Source: a virus | Taxonomy: Duplodnaviria; Heunggongvirae; Uroviricota; Caudoviricetes | DNA: 23,505 nucleotides | Strand: one strand, 5' to 3' | IMG/VR virus record: IMGVR_UViG_2925939204_000004 | Span: 1 to 23,505 of that record | In this document: positions 9,814-17,749 of the stretch, piece by piece | Numbering within the stretch: position 1 is the stretch's first letter | Layout of the letters: each line of letters starts with the position of its first letter | The notes under the pieces: generated by a model | Database searches by the model: none | What the model was told of the DNA's origin: nothing | Seen by the model: only the letters and a program-made list of their open reading frames with translations | Program-made: the position numbers and the translations under genes

Positions 9814-10413
9814 TTATGCTTGTTTACTCCTTGATTCCACTGGGGAAGCTGGCCACTCAATATCCGGTGCTCTTGATGTATCAACACGGTTCAGCAGCAC
9901 TCGATACTTCTTCCAGGCTTCCAGCAACGAGATTTCTTCCTCCGTTGCGATTTCCAGATCTACAGCATCCTGAAGTGGCGCAATATGCTCACTGGCTACC
10001 TGCATCAGGCTGTTTTTTGTTTCTTCTGCCTCCCGGATCCGGAACAGTTTTTCTGCTTCCGTATCCTTCACCCAGGCTGTGCCGTTCCACTTCTGATATT
10101 CCCCTTCCGGCGACGACCAGGTAACATTTTCCGGTAACGGACCGAGTTCAGAAATAAATAACGCGTCGCCGGAAGCCACGTCATAAACCGTTTTACCACG
10201 ATGATCTTCAACGAGATGCCAAGACGCCCCATCACTGTTGAAAACAGCCACGAAGCCAGCTGGAATATCTGGCGGAGCAATATCAGTACTATTTGCAGGC
10301 AGACCTGTATGAGGTGGAATGTATGCATCACCTTCACCAATAAATTCATTGGTTCCGACCAGCAGATTATAAATTTTTATGGTTCGTGGTTGTTCACTCA
10401 TTCTGAATGCCAT
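9814..10413 (-). CDS. Tail fibre assembly protein (Tfa, P2 gpG-like)
   Basis: 199 aa with conserved C-terminal [26 protein letters not shown]. Its ATG overlaps the stop of the upstream tail fibre ORF (TAATG). Confidence 0.85.
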
Positions 10414-11480
10414 TATGCAAGCCTCACAATATAGTTAAATGCGATGTTTTTTACGGTGTTTTCCGCGTTGCCATAAGCGGCAATGGTAATGGTGTGTGTG
10501 TGCGAACCAATAGCGAGCGTATGTGTATGCGCACCTATTGCTACTGTGTGAGTATGAGCTCCTGCGCTTAATACGCGATTACTTGCTGTCTTGCTTGTGT
10601 TAGTTGCATGCATTCCACCACCGGTACCGGGAGTTTCTGCGTATGCTGAAGTATTGTTGTAAGCAAAGTTGTGTGTATGTGCTCCGGTGTTATTTGTGGA
10701 TTTAGTTCCGTAATCAAACGACGATGTGGTTTTCGTCCCCAAATCCGTACTGGATGCGCTGGCGCTGTGGGTGTGCGATTTAATGCCGTCCTGTTCCTGA
10801 GACAATACGGCCCGACCACTGGCAGGTTTGCCCTTAATCGTCCAGCCACGCATATCAGGGATCACGCCTGACGGATAAGCGACTGCAAGTTTCGGGTAGG
10901 CAGATTTGTCAAAAGTCTGCCCCTGCATCAGGGCATAACCAGACGGAACGGTATCCGATGGCCACGGGATTGGTGCGCCAGGCGGATAAAACTGCTCTGA
11001 TGGCGTATAGAGTGAATAAACTGTACCGTCCGTTAACCCTTCCGGCTTATTAGCAGAATATGCTGGTGACGGATGAATCGTTACGCTGGCATTACTGGTA
11101 TAATCCCATTGAATATTTACACCAGTCGCATAATTTCCGATTGCAACGTAAATATCGTAAGTATCACCAGATGTATTGACCCAGGCAAAATTTGTAAACC
11201 CTGCCGATGTGCGCTGCCATAAAGCACCAGTAATCCCCTTCGGATTACCATTACCTGCACGCAAAACAATTTCAGATATACCTGCCTGTTGAGGTGAACC
11301 GACGTTATATCCAGCGCCACCAATCAACGTAATTGAAACAACAGAACTCGCCTGTGGCATGGTTACCGTTGCTAATTTGAACCAACCAGCACCACCTCTG
11401 AATGACATTGTTGTTGAGTTAAGCGTACCAATATCTTTCGGTGTCAGTGTTATATCCGCTGAAAGCGCCTTACCATTCAC
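10413..11480 (-). CDS. Tail fibre protein, C-terminal receptor-binding region; N-terminally truncated relative to P2 gpH
   Basis: C-terminus carries [24 protein letters not shown] fibre repeats. The ORF opens only with GTG 21 nt after an in-frame stop. An ATG-AGT (Met-Ser) start sits right after the I stop but hits a stop after 6 codons. Confidence 0.55.
10470..10565 (-). repeat. Tandem degenerate coding repeats (about 24 bp, HTHT-x-AIG units) inside the tail fibre gene
   Basis: Three consecutive units visible in both the DNA and the translation. Confidence 0.4.
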
Positions 11481-11504
11481 CTTACGGGCAGAAGGTACTC
11501 ATGC

Positions 11505-12467
11505 TTAATCGTCCGGATAAATGGTAATGACTTCACCGTCGTAAGTTGCTGCCGCCGCGAAAATATCCCCCGGAATTTCCTGAATGATATTCAGCCCTGT
11601 CATGTGGCGGCTGACCGGGCGGGCATCAGCAATCAACCGCTCCATTTCCAGATACATTTCCTCCGTCACGCCACTGTCCAGCGTGCCGACTTCAACGGTA
11701 AATGTTCCCGGTTCTCCGCCGAACTCCCACCACTCAGACACGCGAATGAGGTATCCCAGCGGCTCAATGGCCCGGCGCAGTGCGCTGATGGTTCCTTTGT
11801 GTCGGTGTATCAGCCATGCATCACGAATCACCTGTCGCTTTGTCTCTTCCGGCCAGTTGCGATCCCAGCGGTCAACGGAAAACGCCCAGGCGAGATAAGG
11901 CAGCAGATGCACCGGGCAGGTGTCCGGCGACCACAGCGTGTTGAGGTCTACCGGAATGTCTGTAACGTCCTGAAGCAGCTTGTTGGTGCTGAAGTTGGAC
12001 TCATCTGCGTGAGACGTGCCGTTGAAACCGATCATGATGCGGTCAAGCGCCACCTGCCGGGCAATCTGTGTGCTGACGCGTGACTGAAAATCAGGGTGTG
12101 CCGCCCAGGCATCAAGCTGCGGATACGAAATAAACGTGTCGTAGTTCACCTGTTCGCACTGATATTTACGGTTTTTCAGATCAACCACGTTATTCGGGTT
12201 ACGGCGTTTTGTGCCGTCATAACTGGTATTCGTGCGCGCAATCGGCCCGGTGGTGTCCAGGAGGATTTTTTCGCCTTTCTGGTCGGTCACACCGAACACG
12301 TTAATTTTTTTTGTAAATTCAGTGCTCTCCTTTACTGCGTTTTCAAAACGCTGCTGCACCGAGGGTTCCACGGTAAATCGCGATACCAGTGCAGATACCG
12401 GGATGTTGTTAAGCGACGCCTGCTGCGCCATATAGCAACCCAGCTTGTTGCGGGTAATATCTGACAT
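11505..12467 (-). CDS. Chimeric ORF: N-terminal half of major capsid protein gpN fused in frame to tail protein gpI (deletion remnant)
   Basis: Residues 1 to about 172 resemble gpN (FTVEPSV, RKYQCEQVNYDTFISYPQLDAWA, IMIGFNGT). From about 11965 downstream the protein resembles gpI (LWSPDTCPVHLLPYLAWAFSVDRWDRNWPEE, LGYLIRVSEWWE, MERLIADARPVSRH). Confidence 0.7.
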   Translation of the reverse strand: MSDITRNKLGCYMAQQASLNNIPVSALVSRFTVEPSVQQRFENAVKESTEFTKKINVFGVTDQKGEKILLDTTGPIARTNTSYDGTKRRNPNNVVDLKNRKYQCEQVNYDTFISYPQLDAWAAHPDFQSRVSTQIARQVALDRIMIGFNGTSHADESNFSTNKLLQDVTDIPVDLNTLWSPDTCPVHLLPYLAWAFSVDRWDRNWPEETKRQVIRDAWLIHRHKGTISALRRAIEPLGYLIRVSEWWEFGGEPGTFTVEVGTLDSGVTEEMYLEMERLIADARPVSRHMTGLNIIQEIPGDIFAAAATYDGEVITIYPDD

Positions 12468-12502
12468 CACCAGATTCATAAAAAATTTGCTCCTTTGTCT
12501 TA

Positions 12503-13339
12503 TCAGAAGTCAGCCAGTTGATCGGAGGCTGCGCCCGTTGCGGTGAACCGGTTCTGCGGATCGCCGTCCTGCGTGCGCAGTTTTTCCTTCAGTGCTGTCA
12601 GCTCTGTGGTCAGTAAAGTGATTTTCTGGCTGTCCTGCTGATGGCGGGTTTCCAGCGCATTAAAACGGTCGATAATGTCGGCCTGTGACGTTGCGACACC
12701 TTCCACCGCTTCCTGAATACGGGAGAAACTGGCGTCATCCGCTTTGCGGCCACGGCCAATAATCCCCATAACGCGGTTAAACCACTGGGTGCCTTCTTCC
12801 TGACGTTGTTCGGTGAGTTCGATAAGTTCTGACTCCATAGCGGCGGTAAACATCGCCACGTCTCCCTGCTGACAGTTGAATGTCATCAGTTGCATACGTT
12901 GTTGTGCCGCAAAGACCAGACGTTCCGTGCCCAGGCTGGCAGGGGTGTCGGTCATTGCCAGCCCGCGCAGGTAAGGGCCTCCCGTGATGGTTGACTGTGG
13001 TTCCAGCTCAATACTGGAGTAAATTTTTTTACCATCGTTAAGCAGGGACATCATGCGAGCGGTCGGCTCAATTTCGGCATACAGTGCCGTGCGGCCTGCC
13101 AGCGGGCCATCGGTTATGTCTTCGGTGCTCAACCCCACAACATCGCCCATAGCGGAAAACTCGCTACCGGGGAGTGGTGACAGGATGTGCTCAATATTCA
13201 CACGTGCACCATAAACGGACGGGTTATAACTGGTGGCGGCAGCTTTCAGCATGTCGCCGTTGATTTCGCGCCCGTCTGCCGTTACACCGGAGACAGCCAC
13301 GCGAAACTTTTTGCGGGATGTCTTTTTTTCATTAGCCAT
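12503..13339 (-). CDS. O: Capsid scaffolding protein (P2 gpO family)
   Basis: Translation MANEKKTSRKKFRVAVSGVTADGREI...VYGARVNIEH resembles gpO. GAGGGG SD precedes ATG 13337-13339; the tracked ORF's upstream extension was rejected. Confidence 0.85.
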   Translation of the reverse strand: MANEKKTSRKKFRVAVSGVTADGREINGDMLKAAATSYNPSVYGARVNIEHILSPLPGSEFSAMGDVVGLSTEDITDGPLAGRTALYAEIEPTARMMSLLNDGKKIYSSIELEPQSTITGGPYLRGLAMTDTPASLGTERLVFAAQQRMQLMTFNCQQGDVAMFTAAMESELIELTEQRQEEGTQWFNRVMGIIGRGRKADDASFSRIQEAVEGVATSQADIIDRFNALETRHQQDSQKITLLTTELTALKEKLRTQDGDPQNRFTATGAASDQLADF

Positions 13340-13499
13340 AGTTTTTGCCCCTCTGACTGGTTCTTCAGTCATGATGGCAAAGCGTAACAGGCTGATACAA
13401 AGGGCTTTTGTTGTAAGAAAACGGCCAGAACAGGGGGTTAAGGAGAACGGTTTCGCGCGCGGGTAATCTTCCTGTAGCGATCTTGAATCATGGTGGTAT

Positions 13500-14105
13500 G
13501 TGCAGGATGGCAAGGATGCGTTCCAGTTTCGCCCTGGCAAAGTGTGCCACCTGATGAATCCTGACATTAACCAGGAAATCTACGGCATGCCGGAATATCT
13601 CGGCGCATTACTCTCGGCCAGCCTGTCTCATTCGGCGGACATGTTCAGAAAACTGTATTACGACAACGGATCCCACGCCGGGTGCATCATCTACATCGGT
13701 GCAGCGCAGGTAAACCGCGAAAGCATGGACTCCCTGAAAGAAACGCTACAGGGTGCACGTGGTGGCGGTGCGTTTAAAAACGTGCTCATTCATGCGCCCA
13801 ACGGGGGCAAAGAGGGGGTGCAAATTTTGCCGTTCCAGCAGATCACCGCAAAGGATGAGTTCATGAATGTTAAGGCGGCATCCCGTGATGATGTGCTGGC
13901 TGCGCACCGCGTTCCGCCGCAACTGATGGGGGCGATGCCGGGTGAAAAAAGTGCGTTTGGTGATGTGGAGAAGGCCGCGCGGGTTTACGCAATTAACGAG
14001 CTGATGCCCGTCATGGAGGCCATGAAGCACATCAATGACTGGCTTGGCGAAGAGGTGATCCGCTTTAACCCTTACGCACTGTTAGATACCCAGCCCACAT
14101 CCTGA
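13500..14105 (+). pseudogene. Portal protein (P2 gpQ family), C-terminal fragment of about 200 aa
   Basis: Contains PDINQEIYGMPEYL and RDDVLAAHRVPPQLMG portal motifs but begins with GTG only 160 bp from the divergent O start. There is no room for the N-terminal portal half or for the terminase gene P. Confidence 0.65.
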
Positions 14106-14130
14106 CGCGCTTCGCTTGTCTGCTGCTTCG

Positions 14131-14157
14131 CCGGGGCATAAAAAATTTATGCCCCGG
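14131..14157 (+). terminator. Perfect 12-bp-stem hairpin (CCGGGGCATAAA aaa TTTATGCCCCGG) after the portal fragment
   Basis: 27-nt perfect palindrome 26 nt after the Q stop. No U tract follows, so it may be a structural or recognition element rather than a terminator. Confidence 0.3.
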
Positions 14158-14443
14158 CTCTCCAGCTCCTGTATCAATCAGATAATTTCACGACGCTTTT
14201 CTGCTTATTGCCATCATCGGCGGTCAGACTCTTACGCAATCCCACCGCGTTGACTGCATGTTCTTCGCCGCCTCAGTGCGATTTTGACGGCCTTACCTTT
14301 CACCCCATCAAATCAGAATCCCTCACGTATTTTTCACGCTCAGCGTGAGAAATACAGCCATTCTGTTGTGTCTCTGCGACATCGTTCAGGGAATGCTATT
14401 TACCCCCTGAAACGCGGGCTGTTCCCCCGTCACCTGCGCGCAG

Positions 14444-14487
14444 AAAAAACGCGTTTTTTTGTGCACGCACGGATCCCTGACGGATCC
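14444..14487. repeat. Palindrome cluster: AAAAAACGCGTTTTTT (16-bp perfect), GTGCAC, and CGGATCC-ctga-CGGATCC
   Basis: Read directly from the sequence; non-coding region between the portal fragment and the PIN gene terminator. Confidence 0.45.
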
Positions 14488-14530
14488 AGCCGCCACGCGG
14501 GCCGGAAGGGCAAAAAGTCGTTCAAAAAAA

Positions 14531-14570
14531 TTGTGCAAATTTGTGCACTATTGTGCATTGCGCACTTGTT
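14531..14570. repeat. Three TTGTGCA direct repeats at exact 10-bp phasing, followed by TTGCGCAC
   Basis: TTGTGCAaat / TTGTGCActa / TTGTGCAttg at 14531, 14541, 14551; a fourth TTGTGCA at 14459. Candidate protein-binding array. Confidence 0.45.
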
Positions 14571-14580
14571 ATAAATAAAC

Positions 14581-14605
14581 AAAAAAAGAGCCGCTATTGC
14601 GGCTC
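14581..14605 (-). terminator. Rho-independent terminator of the HTH-peptidase/PIN operon
   Basis: On the minus strand GAGCCGC-AATA-GCGGCTC is followed by a T7 run, 33 nt after the PIN gene stop. Confidence 0.7.
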
Positions 14606-14638
14606 AATATAATCCAATATGGCAAGAGAAATTTGGAT

Positions 14639-15157
14639 TCATTCGAAACTGGCAAGAATCTGTTCTCGAACAGAAGATTTCATCGTTAACCCACGATCTA
14701 GGAAAAATTGGAAATGCATTAAGGCTTGTTGTTTGTGTATAAGTCTCCTGCGCACAGCCTCTTGAAGTAGCCCTCCGTGGCGGGCGGCTTTTACACCGCG
14801 TTCCGCACACGTTTTATAAACCGCATTATCCGCCGAAAGACATGTTGCATCATGTATTCTCGCGTTAACAACGCAGCTTATGTCCGCATACTTCAATGCT
14901 CTCCTGCGATTTTTTATCTCAGCCATTTCAATAAAATGTTCAGGTTCGTAATCATTGGTGAAATTGTATGGAAGTTGCAGGCGTGTAAGCTGTTCCTGAA
15001 CATCAAGATTGTATTTAGCTTTTAGTTCCTCGCAGACATAGGGGTCAATCCACACACCACCCGGGTAAATTTGCCAGATAATATCTAAGCATTTACCTTC
15101 GTAAAAATCAGACAGTACATTCGTATCGATAACACATCTGGGGCATTCAAACGGCAT
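14639..15157 (-). CDS. PIN-like (VapC/DUF4411-like) putative nuclease; toxin or effector candidate
   Basis: Starts at ATG 15155-15157, overlapping the upstream gene's stop by 11 nt. N-terminus CVIDTNVLSDF with downstream acidic residues (CEELK, IHDATCLSADN) spaced as in PIN folds. AT-rich. Confidence 0.6.
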   Translation of the reverse strand: MPFECPRCVIDTNVLSDFYEGKCLDIIWQIYPGGVWIDPYVCEELKAKYNLDVQEQLTRLQLPYNFTNDYEPEHFIEMAEIKNRRRALKYADISCVVNARIHDATCLSADNAVYKTCAERGVKAARHGGLLQEAVRRRLIHKQQALMHFQFFLDRGLTMKSSVREQILASFE

Positions 15158-16292
15158 CCTCTCCGGCCTCCTGTTCGTCGTACCATTCATCCAGAAGATT
15201 GCTGAGAGCTTTTCTGTCTAATTCTAAAAGTTCAGATATGAAGGTTTCCGACGCGGAACCGGCTTCCCATGCTTTACGCGATAAGACGGTTAGGCGACCT
15301 TTATAATTTAGTGCTTCCCTAATGGGATTTGGCTCGTGTCTCTTCCAACCTTTACGATTGGCGGTTGCCCATAGGTATCTAGTGTTTTGTTGATTAATTA
15401 AATTACATTTACTAAGACGATCGATGATGCAAGTGGCTGATACTCTGAAAATGCTTTTTAGTCTAAGGACGGTTTCCTCATACGCCCATCCACCACCTTG
15501 CATGACGAATTGTTTTCGCAATGCGCTTTCTGGTACCAAAAAACAAGCAGCAAAGTGATTAGCAACTTTTTCTTCCGGTGAAATTGCTTTGCCATTAGTT
15601 TTATAGCTTTTAGCAGGGCCATGATACTCATCACGGTGGAAGATAAGATGAGCATATTCATGGCAAATACTGAAGATTTGACGTTCTATTGAAATGCTGT
15701 CGTGAACATTTACATAAATCGCGGTACCGTATTTGTTCGAAAACGCAGAAAATCCGAATACCATCCCTTTATCGGTTTCTTCGCGATTGAACGGGATTAC
15801 TCGAATATCCGATGCTTCCAAAATGGCTACAATGTCACCAACGCAAGTAGCGTTTCCTATACCAAGACGGAAACGTTCTTCCATAGCCTTATCTTCGACT
15901 CTTCGCAAATCTTCTGCTTTGGCGGTAAAAATAGGCATTGAGTTAGGAAGATCTTCTGGCAAATTAGCATCAGCAGCTTCCTCAATTGCATTGATATTTT
16001 TTAACTTTTCAATCAACTCATTGCGAAGTTTGGCATCCAACAAATCCGGACTATCTGCTCGCATTGCAAAACGAAACTCGCCATCATCTTGCTCATAAAA
16101 ATACCCGATAGGCTTATCGAAAATCTTGCAGAGCATGATGAGTTGGGTAACGCTTGGGACGCCTAACGCCTGCTCAAACTTACTGTAGGTTTGACGAACA
16201 ACACCGATCGCATCTGCGACGGCGCTTGCACTCATTCCCGCGTCGTTTCTGGCCTGAACCAAGCGTTCTGCTATACGCTGTTGAATGTTCAT
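15147..16292 (-). CDS. XRE-family HTH fused to an ImmA/IrrE-type (COG2856/M78) zinc metallopeptidase
   Basis: N-terminal HTH (QRIAERLVQARNDAGMSASAVADAIGVVRQTYSKFE) and an intact HEXXH motif in SICHEYAHLIFH. AGGTGA SD precedes the start. AT-rich. Confidence 0.7.
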   Translation of the reverse strand: MNIQQRIAERLVQARNDAGMSASAVADAIGVVRQTYSKFEQALGVPSVTQLIMLCKIFDKPIGYFYEQDDGEFRFAMRADSPDLLDAKLRNELIEKLKNINAIEEAADANLPEDLPNSMPIFTAKAEDLRRVEDKAMEERFRLGIGNATCVGDIVAILEASDIRVIPFNREETDKGMVFGFSAFSNKYGTAIYVNVHDSISIERQIFSICHEYAHLIFHRDEYHGPAKSYKTNGKAISPEEKVANHFAACFLVPESALRKQFVMQGGGWAYEETVLRLKSIFRVSATCIIDRLSKCNLINQQNTRYLWATANRKGWKRHEPNPIREALNYKGRLTVLSRKAWEAGSASETFISELLELDRKALSNLLDEWYDEQEAGEDAV

Positions 16293-16473: not shown

Positions 16474-16785
16474 TTACTCAGGAAATAGCGCCCGGATATT
16501 TCCGGCCATCTGACTGGTTATCTGTGCGGTTGGTACTGGCTGTGACACGGGGCGTTCTGTCCTGGTTTGTGTCACGGATAACGCCTCATCGTCAGCCCAT
16601 GCAGCCAGTCGGTAAGCCTCTGCCGGATTCATTTTCAGAAGTGCCAGCCCGGCCAGAAAAGCCACGCGTTGGCCGCTTTTGCGGGCTTCTGGTGTAAGGC
16701 TGTCCAGCCAGGCGCATGCTTCGCCTTCGTTCTTGACGGCGGCGGGCTTCAGATAGAAACTTATCCGTCTGGTTGGTGTCGTCAT
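16474..16785 (-). CDS. parR: ParR/StbB-like centromere-binding adaptor
   Basis: Start at ATG 16783-16785 with AAGGAG SD, 4 nt after the parM stop. N-terminus RRISFYLKPAAV...AWLDSLTPEARKSGQRVAFLAGLAL resembles the ParR ribbon-helix-helix region. Confidence 0.65.
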   Translation of the reverse strand: MTTPTRRISFYLKPAAVKNEGEACAWLDSLTPEARKSGQRVAFLAGLALLKMNPAEAYRLAAWADDEALSVTQTRTERPVSQPVPTAQITSQMAGNIRALFPE

Positions 16786-16789
16786 TGGT

Positions 16790-17749
16790 TTACTCCTTGT
16801 CCATTGCGTACAGCCCATTAACCAGAGCAAACTGTGGCACCCCGTCCGCGATGAAAGTCGCATTAACTCCGCAGGCTTCGCGGATAGCGGGTGCCACAAT
16901 CTCCGCCCCGCCACCGACAACCATCACCCGCCCGTAACCCGAAAAATCCGCCAGCGCGCGGATCACGCGTTGTTTCAGTGTTTCTTCCTTTTCACGAATA
17001 ACCGCCATCAGGCTGGCGTAATGCGCGTCATTGTGGATGTGCTGGCGCAGCCAGGCTTCATCATGGCGATGTTCGATAATGGTATTGGCGATGTGGTGAC
17101 TGGTGCGCATACCGTTAGTGGCCATCACCGACAGTACGGCATCGGCCATCAGAGAAACGCCTACGTGTGGATCGCAAAACACCTGGCTGATACCTGCCAG
17201 TTGCCCCTGAACCTTTGCCACATCCAGCGTGGTTCCGCCCAAATCCACAATCAGCAGGGATTCAAACGGACTCATGTCAGCCAGTGCCTTAAAGCCAGCC
17301 GGAATGGATTCAGGCATAACCCGCACGTTACGGATAGTGAATGCCTCACCGTTCTGGTACTCCACCGGGCGCATGACGTTCGCTTTTTTGCGGTTGATGT
17401 TGGCCATGTCCGGCTGTGCGTTTGTGTCGAAATATTCGCTCAGTGGCAGGGTGACAACCACATCCACCTCCTGTGGCGTGATGCCTGATTTGACCAGCGC
17501 GTGATGAATGGCAATGACATTCACATCGCTGTACTGGTATTGCGTGTCGGTCGTCTGGACAAAGCGATCGCTGACCGGATCAAAACCATAGCGCACGCCA
17601 TCAAGCATGTAGTTCGCGGGCTGCGTGCCACCGAACGGCGCAGACCATTCCGACTTGAAGCTGTTCGGGCTGATGGCGTTGCGGCGTTCGCCGTTCTCAG
17701 TCCATGCCAGCTTGATGTTGGTGGAGCCGTCATCGATACAAATTTTCAT
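16790..17749 (-). CDS. parM: ParM/StbA actin-like partition ATPase
   Basis: MKICIDDGSTNIKLAW...ISPNSFK...YQYSDVNVIAIHHAL...VMPESIPAG...LIVDLGGTTLD...VVGGGAE aligns along its length with plasmid R1 ParM from memory. Confidence 0.85.
   Translation of the reverse strand: MKICIDDGSTNIKLAWTENGERRNAISPNSFKSEWSAPFGGTQPANYMLDGVRYGFDPVSDRFVQTTDTQYQYSDVNVIAIHHALVKSGITPQEVDVVVTLPLSEYFDTNAQPDMANINRKKANVMRPVEYQNGEAFTIRNVRVMPESIPAGFKALADMSPFESLLIVDLGGTTLDVAKVQGQLAGISQVFCDPHVGVSLMADAVLSVMATNGMRTSHHIANTIIEHRHDEAWLRQHIHNDAHYASLMAVIREKEETLKQRVIRALADFSGYGRVMVVGGGAEIVAPAIREACGVNATFIADGVPQFALVNGLYAMDKE

Follow-up and report, generated by a model that had tools for sequence, protein, structure and literature searches.

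A probable cohesive-end packaging site of P88-type phages, preserved in a decayed P2-family prophage of Escherichia coli

The cohesive-end packaging (cos) sites of P2, 186 and P4 reportedly have 19-nt 5′ cohesive ends and share a 55-bp core, a description said to go back to Ziermann and Calendar in 1990. A 55-bp P2-family cos core is cited in PMC5694545, and alignment of the circularised P2, P4 and 186 cos sequences recovers it: GCGCGC precedes the cohesive segment of 19 nt, after which come a hairpin of 19 nt and, at the end, TTTTAATGCA. All three genomes carry ATGCA boxes ~57 nt past this core, at spacings of 10 and 12–13 bp. In the P2 record, cos lies 187 bp past the stop of gene Q with the terminator tQ in between, and a terminator, tW, is annotated at the equivalent place in the 186 record. 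P2 and P4 have essentially only the cos site in common (PMC9122126), and in P2-like phages the gpA–gpQ interval is a cos-adjacent hotspot for cargo and defence genes (Rousset et al. 2022, PMC9122126), defined there by the flanking gpA and gpQ without a description of a P88-type cos sequence. Here we analyse positions 14106–14638 of a 23,505-base stretch (the window), IMG/VR record IMGVR_UViG_2925939204_000004, in which a conserved module at 14398–14560 (unstranded) is very probably the cos site of a P88-type phage of the P2 family, preserved intact in a decayed prophage. The basis for this reading is the position of the module, its conservation, its sharp boundaries, its sharing with satellites that gave no portal or terminase hits, and its collinearity with the cos sites of P2, P4 and 186.

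The window represents a P88-like prophage of the P2 family (Xuanwuvirus) that has degraded. Over its whole length it is 100% identical to a chromosomal segment found in several E. coli genomes, flanked there by ihfA and btuC and annotated as a P2-family prophage. Its nearest phages are P88 and other Xuanwuvirus members (Peduoviridae), which match it at ~95% identity from the portal gene to ~14557–14560 and diverge from there on. The interval under study extends from the portal stop (14105) to the stop of a convergent PIN-domain gene (14639), and the module sits in it past the portal stop and before the gpA-side cargo, the same layout as in the P2 and 186 records. An earlier note on this DNA, made from the letters of the sequence, had suggested that the interval just past Q holds the remnant of a packaging site. 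The position, the sharing with satellites and the collinearity with P2, P4 and 186 support the packaging site itself, narrowed to the right-hand ~160 bp; the site is intact, and it is the surrounding prophage that is the remnant.

Of 5426 complete E. coli genomes, 1147 (~21%) contain a 127-bp core of the module (14436–14562), mostly at 93–100% identity. These alignments end abruptly at 14557–14560, and the module ends exactly where variable cargo starts; because this cargo follows 14560, only 26 genomes match the full 14050–14700 stretch. To the left of ~14398, conservation is confined to the P88 genus. The search for the phased TTGTGCA repeats in other genomes that the earlier note had proposed was made in a single genome of each species; it revealed that the module is spread over Enterobacterales, with varied flanking genes and in both phage and satellite contexts, the former in the order portal, module, variable cargo, gpA. 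From IMG/VR, 102 unique modules were retrieved through block A alone (14413–14442, described below), so the conservation of the repeat array in them does not arise by construction: the exact GTGCA stands at box positions 1–4 in 96, 87, 84 and 77 of the 102, and most exceptions are one-base variants. Conversely, when the array alone served to retrieve modules, their block A hardly varied. One IMG/VR module (...GCGCGTTTTTTGTGCACTATTGTGCAGCAGGG...) lacks the whole stretch that separates box 1 from an array box, block B included, apparently through recombination between GTGCAC repeats. Three copies of TTGTGCA at 10-bp phasing also occur several times per genome in metagenome-assembled genomes of Bryobacterales (L014, L106 and many other loci), in GC-rich surroundings unrelated to the phage module, and these were set aside.

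In a conservation profile over 120 sequences, invariant DNA blocks of 27–36 nt alternate with hypervariable blocks bearing 1- and 5-nt indels, the variable stretches including the A-rich half of the palindrome and the CGGATCC repeat. Such a block pattern fits a multi-part protein-recognition site, and neither a gene nor a structured RNA. A small protein or structured RNA encoded by the conserved segment would account for the hypothetical open reading frames (ORFs) annotated over it (gp21 and gp22 in P88, and one of 90 amino acids in E. coli strain KD602, which in tblastn hits every module) and for the strong hairpins in the interval; however, we regard it as extremely improbable, given the alternation of invariant and indel-bearing blocks. 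The called ORFs also vary in extent between records, and the versions in the window are TTG-started or broken, the latter being true of the small ORF annotated here in P88. No long ORF is present in the interval: the longest, of 96 amino acids, is TTG-started and crosses the module (14284–14574, plus strand), and the only ATG-started one, of 48 amino acids, lies at the right edge (14619–14765), beyond the conserved part. The strongest hairpins (at 14130 and 14327) fall outside the module, and the search for non-coding RNAs that the earlier note had advised, run against Rfam over 13900–14900, gave chance-level matches only and no family.

The weakest matches to the core in E. coli (76–80% identity) lie in small P4-organised islands, not in phages. 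These islands consist of a late-type block ending in an Ogr/Delta zinc-finger gene, the module, an integrase, a Toprim primase and Icd-like genes, and they were seen in E. coli KD602 (L009, 3119–12116), Kluyvera (L029), Erwinia dacicola (L045) and Apirhabdus (L075) as well as at loci L010, L094 and L125. They share the module at 75–81% identity, with boundaries at 14392/14413 on the left and 14557/14561 on the right, and it is the sole island DNA in common with the window, bar integrase homology and short hok/gef- and gpA-related pieces in L010. Sequence searches for portal, TerL and Psu in these islands returned no matches. By analogy with P2 and P4, a segment common to helper-type phages and terminase-less satellites is a hallmark of a cos site.

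The islands additionally encode a homologue of the P2-family major capsid protein (423 amino acids; Pfam PF05125, 2e-72) with an N-terminal extension of ~120 amino acids, together with a 236-amino-acid protein of unknown function and the Ogr/Delta protein. In SaPIbov5, Ccm redirects capsid size, and the islands may, by analogy, be satellites of P88-like phages that use the capsid homologue for size redirection. As a tentative proposal, which we put forward as possible, P88-type phages might form a packaging-specificity group apart from P2 and 186, with GTGCA in place of ATGCA and with undescribed P4-organised Enterobacterales satellites of their own in which the capsid homologue replaces sid and psu; the extended homologue could then redirect capsid size in a Ccm-like manner.

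Aligned to the P2-family cos sites, as the earlier note had recommended, the module proved collinear with those of P2, P4 and 186. The common order is a 19-mer, 19–20 nt, a T-run with a TGCA box, CAGACCGCGCC 15 nt further on, and three phased boxes with a TGCA core, which lie distal to Q and are present here as three copies of TTGTGCA. A profile of the P88-type module aligned to P4 in this same order, TTTTAATGCA corresponding to the T-run and GTGCA box, CAGACCGCGCC being shared and ATGCAAAgccATGCACC corresponding to TTGTGCAAATTTGTGCAC; nhmmer places the T-run and box 1 (14454–14465) opposite the TTTTAATGCA of P4. The counterpart of the 55-bp core comprises CGCGG, the 19-mer, 19–20 nt and TTTTTTTGTGCA; it is strongly diverged, and its hairpin is not conserved across the family. 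The small terminase of P88, YP_009113070.1, is 37% identical to P2 gpM and the intact P88 portal 47% identical to P2 gpQ, which is consistent with a homologous but diverged recognition site. On all these lines taken together, we regard the module as homologous to the P2-family cos, though diverged from it.

Set beside P2, 186 and P4, the P88-type site is alike in lying past the 3′ end of Q and beside the cargo hotspot, with a hairpin after Q, in its CCCC-containing 19-mer followed by ~19 nt and the elements just listed, in being common to helper phages and satellites, and in the homology of the packaging proteins. It differs in that its DNA is too diverged for BLAST, with a 19-mer matching at 13 of 19 positions; in its boxes, which are GTGCA instead of ATGCA and phased at exactly 10 bp; in a Q-to-cos distance of ~310 bp compared with ~190 bp; in the extra block B and A-tract before the array; and in a lineage-specific dyad that replaces the hairpin of the 55-bp core, while its cohesive ends are candidates only. 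The cos of lambda (cosQ-cosN-cosB, with R sites for gpNu1 and with IHF) resembles the module in having a nicking site, small-terminase repeats on one side and possibly a bend, but differs in orientation, repeat sequence and spacing, and the IHF-like match here is at chance level; the likeness claimed is one of logic.

Block A (14413–14442), at least 95% conserved in the 120-sequence profile, is the most likely cut site, and probably the actual one. It contains the best candidate for the cohesive-end segment (cosN), GGGCTGTTCCCCCGTCACC at 14416–14434 (minus strand), whose minus-strand sequence GGTGACGGGGGAACAGCCC is the best ungapped match in the region to the P2 cosN, GGCGAGGCGGGGAAAGCAC, at 13 of 19 positions and in the P2 orientation relative to Q. 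This candidate stands 19–20 nt before the T-run and TGCA box, a spacing as in P2, P4 and 186. The earlier note had spoken of a loose resemblance to the P2 cohesive end, a fair description of a match that is not significant alone.

Adjoining the candidate, where the 55-bp core of P2 has its 19-bp hairpin, is an imperfect dyad (14435–14469, unstranded) with arms at 14435–14449 and 14455–14469 (87% complementary) that encloses a perfect 16-bp palindrome, AAAAAACGCGTTTTTT, at 14444–14459. In fold tests comparing RNA folding energy with that of shuffled sequence, the palindrome is weakly unusual (z = −2.25). Both the left arm and the palindrome are lineage-specific, family relatives carrying GACATTTGCTTCG there. 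The T-run and first TTGTGCA box (14454–14465, plus strand), at least 95% conserved, form the counterpart of the TTTTAATGCA that closes the core in P2, P4 and 186. A variable stretch follows between box 1 and block B, holding the direct repeat ACGGATCC (14469–14487, plus strand), with (A)CGGATCC at 14469–14476 and 14480–14487 and a structure that is not unusual (z = −1.8); satellites and other lineages have unrelated sequence here, and only the first GATCC is partly conserved, in ~70–95% of the family. The repeat places two GATC (Dam) sites inside the module, at 14472–14475 and 14483–14486, which, speculatively, recall the pac site of P1 with its control by methylation. Like the dyad at 14327–14355 discussed below, the palindrome and the CGGATCC repeat had been listed by the earlier note in the region that it took for a packaging-site remnant and/or a regulatory region; they are lineage-specific and not conserved parts of the packaging site.

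Block B, GGGCCGGAAGGGCAAAAA (14499–14516, plus strand), is 85–95% conserved, without a counterpart in P2, P4 or 186, and could be an alternative cosN candidate or an accessory protein site. Next, an A-tract, TCAAAAAAA (14522–14530, plus strand), identical in 81 of the 102 unique modules, abuts three TTGTGCA boxes at exact 10-bp phasing (14531–14557, plus strand), which we propose as a small-terminase recognition array resembling cosB; TCAAAAAAA and the three boxes together (14522–14557) are 85–100% conserved in the profile. The A-tract may, speculatively, be a bend or a weak IHF-like site. As an IHF site proper it was rejected, the window sequence having two mismatches to the IHF consensus and such matches occurring at chance frequency. 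The boxes start at 14531, 14541 and 14551; the earlier note had recognised these three and their phasing and overlooked the fourth copy at 14459–14465. No other TTGTGCA is found on either strand of the 23,505 bases, a total that is not above chance (6.25 expected), whereas the clustering on one strand within 99 bp is; the phased three-copy pattern, with up to three mismatches allowed, appeared in none of 100 shuffles.

In the mechanism that we propose, the small terminase, a homologue of gpM, would recognise the GTGCA boxes, one at 14459–14465 and three at 14531–14557 one helical turn apart, as suggested by analogy with other cos phages. The small subunit would then position the large subunit for staggered nicks in block A, where the cohesive segment, at best guess 14416–14434, would yield ends analogous to the 19-nt ends of P2. 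We infer the exact cut, the overhang length and the identity of the box-binding protein.

The cut could instead fall in block B (~14494–14512, CACGCGGGCCGGAAGGGCA) of what would still be a cos site, block A being an accessory site at which terminase is bound or that serves termination. In phages and in satellites alike, block B is conserved, it shows a loose likeness to the P2 cosN (GGCGGGGAAAGCAC against GGGCGGAAAGGGCA, 9–11 of 19), and the linear record of phage P88_4B11 begins right after it, at 14512|14513. However, base 1 of that record was chosen by its authors (PMC6969025); the cosN likeness is weaker than that of block A and in the opposite orientation; a cut there breaks the collinearity with P2, P4 and 186, while block A, unlike B, fits both the T-run polarity ahead of the box and the side taken by the array; and block B is the less conserved of the two. 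We consider a cut in block B unlikely. The ends of the P88_4B11 record were also rejected as physical termini, base 1 having been set relative to reference genomes after trimming of contig-end repeats (PMC6969025).

Several points weigh against reading the module as a P88-type cos. P88_4B11 is the sole phage record that starts inside it, with its author-chosen first base, and no other phage record starting or ending in the module was found. Contig ends that fall in the module are scattered (14394, 14400, 14422, 14442, 14478, 14480 and 14495), and a survey of contig ends in IMG/VR and metagenomes revealed no pile-up, indicating assembly breaks. Alignment of the profile to P4 was of marginal significance (E = 0.68 for a nominal 1 Mb, or ~0.02 when scaled to the 30 kb searched), and the match to the P2 cosN is weak alone: shuffled sequences reach a best match of at least 13 of 19 with P = 0.08, and 186 matches at only 11 of 19. 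Block B, although conserved as well, lacks a counterpart in P2, and that the small terminase binds the boxes is something we purely infer. The prophage, moreover, is now without a terminase, and its own phage is therefore not using the site; the cos here would be an intact relic, able to act only with enzyme from a related phage.

The array and dyads might alternatively be an operator or promoter for cargo or late genes, bound by an Ogr-type activator, a repressor or the helix-turn-helix (HTH) protein of the cargo. Operators typically contain short phased repeats, a neighbouring gene codes for an HTH protein, and the −35 of the P2 old promoter is overlapped by the third ATGCA box. Even so, such a role is very unlikely: transcription of the cargo operon runs toward the array and ends short of it, at the operon's own terminator; a scan of 14106–14640 for sigma-70-like promoters revealed none; the array is kept beside hundreds of different cargoes and, in satellites, beside an integrase or delta gene; and in P4 the boxes lie downstream of psu. 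The suggestion in the earlier note of a regulatory region for neighbouring cargo is likewise not supported: the operon, an RmrA-like HTH/M78 gene with a PIN gene, converges on the interval and ends at 14588–14605 (minus strand). An Ogr-type late promoter (TGT-N12-ACA) showed no fit on inspection by eye. In the P2 case, the −35 hexamer overlapped by the box is TTGAAT of the old-tin promoter (L007, 2958–2990, right end), and cos boxes and a cargo promoter there share DNA.

Phased repeats could also serve as a parC-like centromere for the prophage's own ParM/StbB, or as replication iterons. ParM and Plasmid_stab_B (ParR-type) are encoded 2 kb away, and centromeres are repeat arrays phased at about one helical turn; yet the array lies 1.9 kb downstream of the par genes with cargo between, not upstream of parM, it is retained in relatives and satellites without any ParM hit, and the replication origin of the P2 family lies inside gene A. 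This explanation has next to nothing of the likelihood that we assign to a P88-type cos. The two genes themselves (16474–17749, minus strand) stand between gpA and the cargo, likewise in phage P88, and make up a plasmid-style partition pair within an integrating phage.

All five motifs that the earlier note had listed are present in the sequence, with small corrections of coordinates. Its perfect hairpin of 27 nt at 14131–14157 is indeed perfect, and extends over 29 nt at 14130–14158 (plus strand), with a 13-bp stem and a 3-nt loop (−29.3 kcal/mol, z = −7.1, none of 200 shuffles as good). The hairpin follows the portal stop, where P2 and 186 annotate tQ and tW, and it is therefore read, by analogy of position, as the tQ counterpart. 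No U-tract or T-run follows the stem, and it was not called by a consensus terminator scan: the definition of an intrinsic terminator, a GC-rich hairpin plus U-tract, fits 14588–14605 (minus strand) and not this hairpin. In distant relatives, a different GC-rich hairpin (CCGCCGC...GCGGCGG) comes right after the portal stop.

Between the hairpin and the module lies a Xuanwuvirus-specific spacer (14159–14397, unstranded) with no intact ORF. It is ~95% identical among P88-like phages, not alignable in relatives from Pantoea, Mixta, Enterobacter, Citrobacter and Symbiopectobacterium, which have unrelated spacers, and absent from the satellites. The spacer includes an imperfect dyad, real as the earlier note had it, that extends over 14327–14355 and not just from about 14331, with 14-nt arms that are 93% complementary (−16.9 kcal/mol, z = −7.0); it is genus-specific and not conserved outside the genus. 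On the far side of the module, the intrinsic terminator of the convergent cargo operon (14588–14605, minus strand; GAGCCGC-AATA-GCGGCTC then T7) was found by the terminator scan, with a fold z of −3.8, and sits in the variable cargo segment.

A cos site is an ordinary feature and is to be expected where this one lies; the exact P88-type sequence is apparently undescribed: the searchable literature yielded no P88-type cos sequence, box architecture or satellites, and the P88 genome paper is silent on cos. Once the P88-type cos is known, true genome ends can be annotated for a group of prophages present in about one-fifth of complete E. coli genomes; it also fixes the exact left edge of the defence-gene hotspot and provides a sequence tag for finding satellites dependent on P88-type phages. 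Comparison of GTGCA with the ATGCA of P2, P4 and 186 suggests how the small terminase of the P2 family chooses its DNA, a choice that would decide which satellites a helper can mobilise. In this strain, an intact site in a dead prophage could matter only if a related phage superinfects.

Upstream of the interval, the portal (Q-type) gene retains its 3′ part and is truncated at the 5′ end (13500–14105, plus strand; stop codon 14103–14105; Pfam Phage_portal, 2.7e-12). RefSeq labels it 'phage portal protein, incomplete' in strain AR_0128, and strain 165 has an intact portal gene of 348 amino acids. The large terminase gene is absent from the prophage, and capsid and tail genes are fused or partial; the decay is visible at 12503–14105 and 10400–12500, where the portal lacks its 5′ part, TerL is gone, and capsid and tail-protein-I pseudogenes abut. 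The sister prophage in strain 165 retains portal and terminase genes, yet is also damaged.

After the module, the gene order is cargo, ParMR, gpA. The cargo consists of a PIN-domain protein (14639–15157, minus strand; Pfam PIN, 2.7e-5) and an HTH_3/Peptidase_M78 protein (15147–16292, minus strand; Pfam Peptidase_M78, 1.3e-11, and HTH_3, 3e-8; PADLOC RmrA, 3.4e-35), which together (14639–16292, minus strand) are, by their domain matches, a Rosmer-like pair, situated in the P2 hotspot already known. Strain AR_0128 carries an additional IS1 near the ogr end of the prophage, and at that end the window carries a hok/gef-type toxin gene (1–141), a 75%-identical copy of which lies at the edge of the satellite in 2013C-3033 (L010, 2056–2380).

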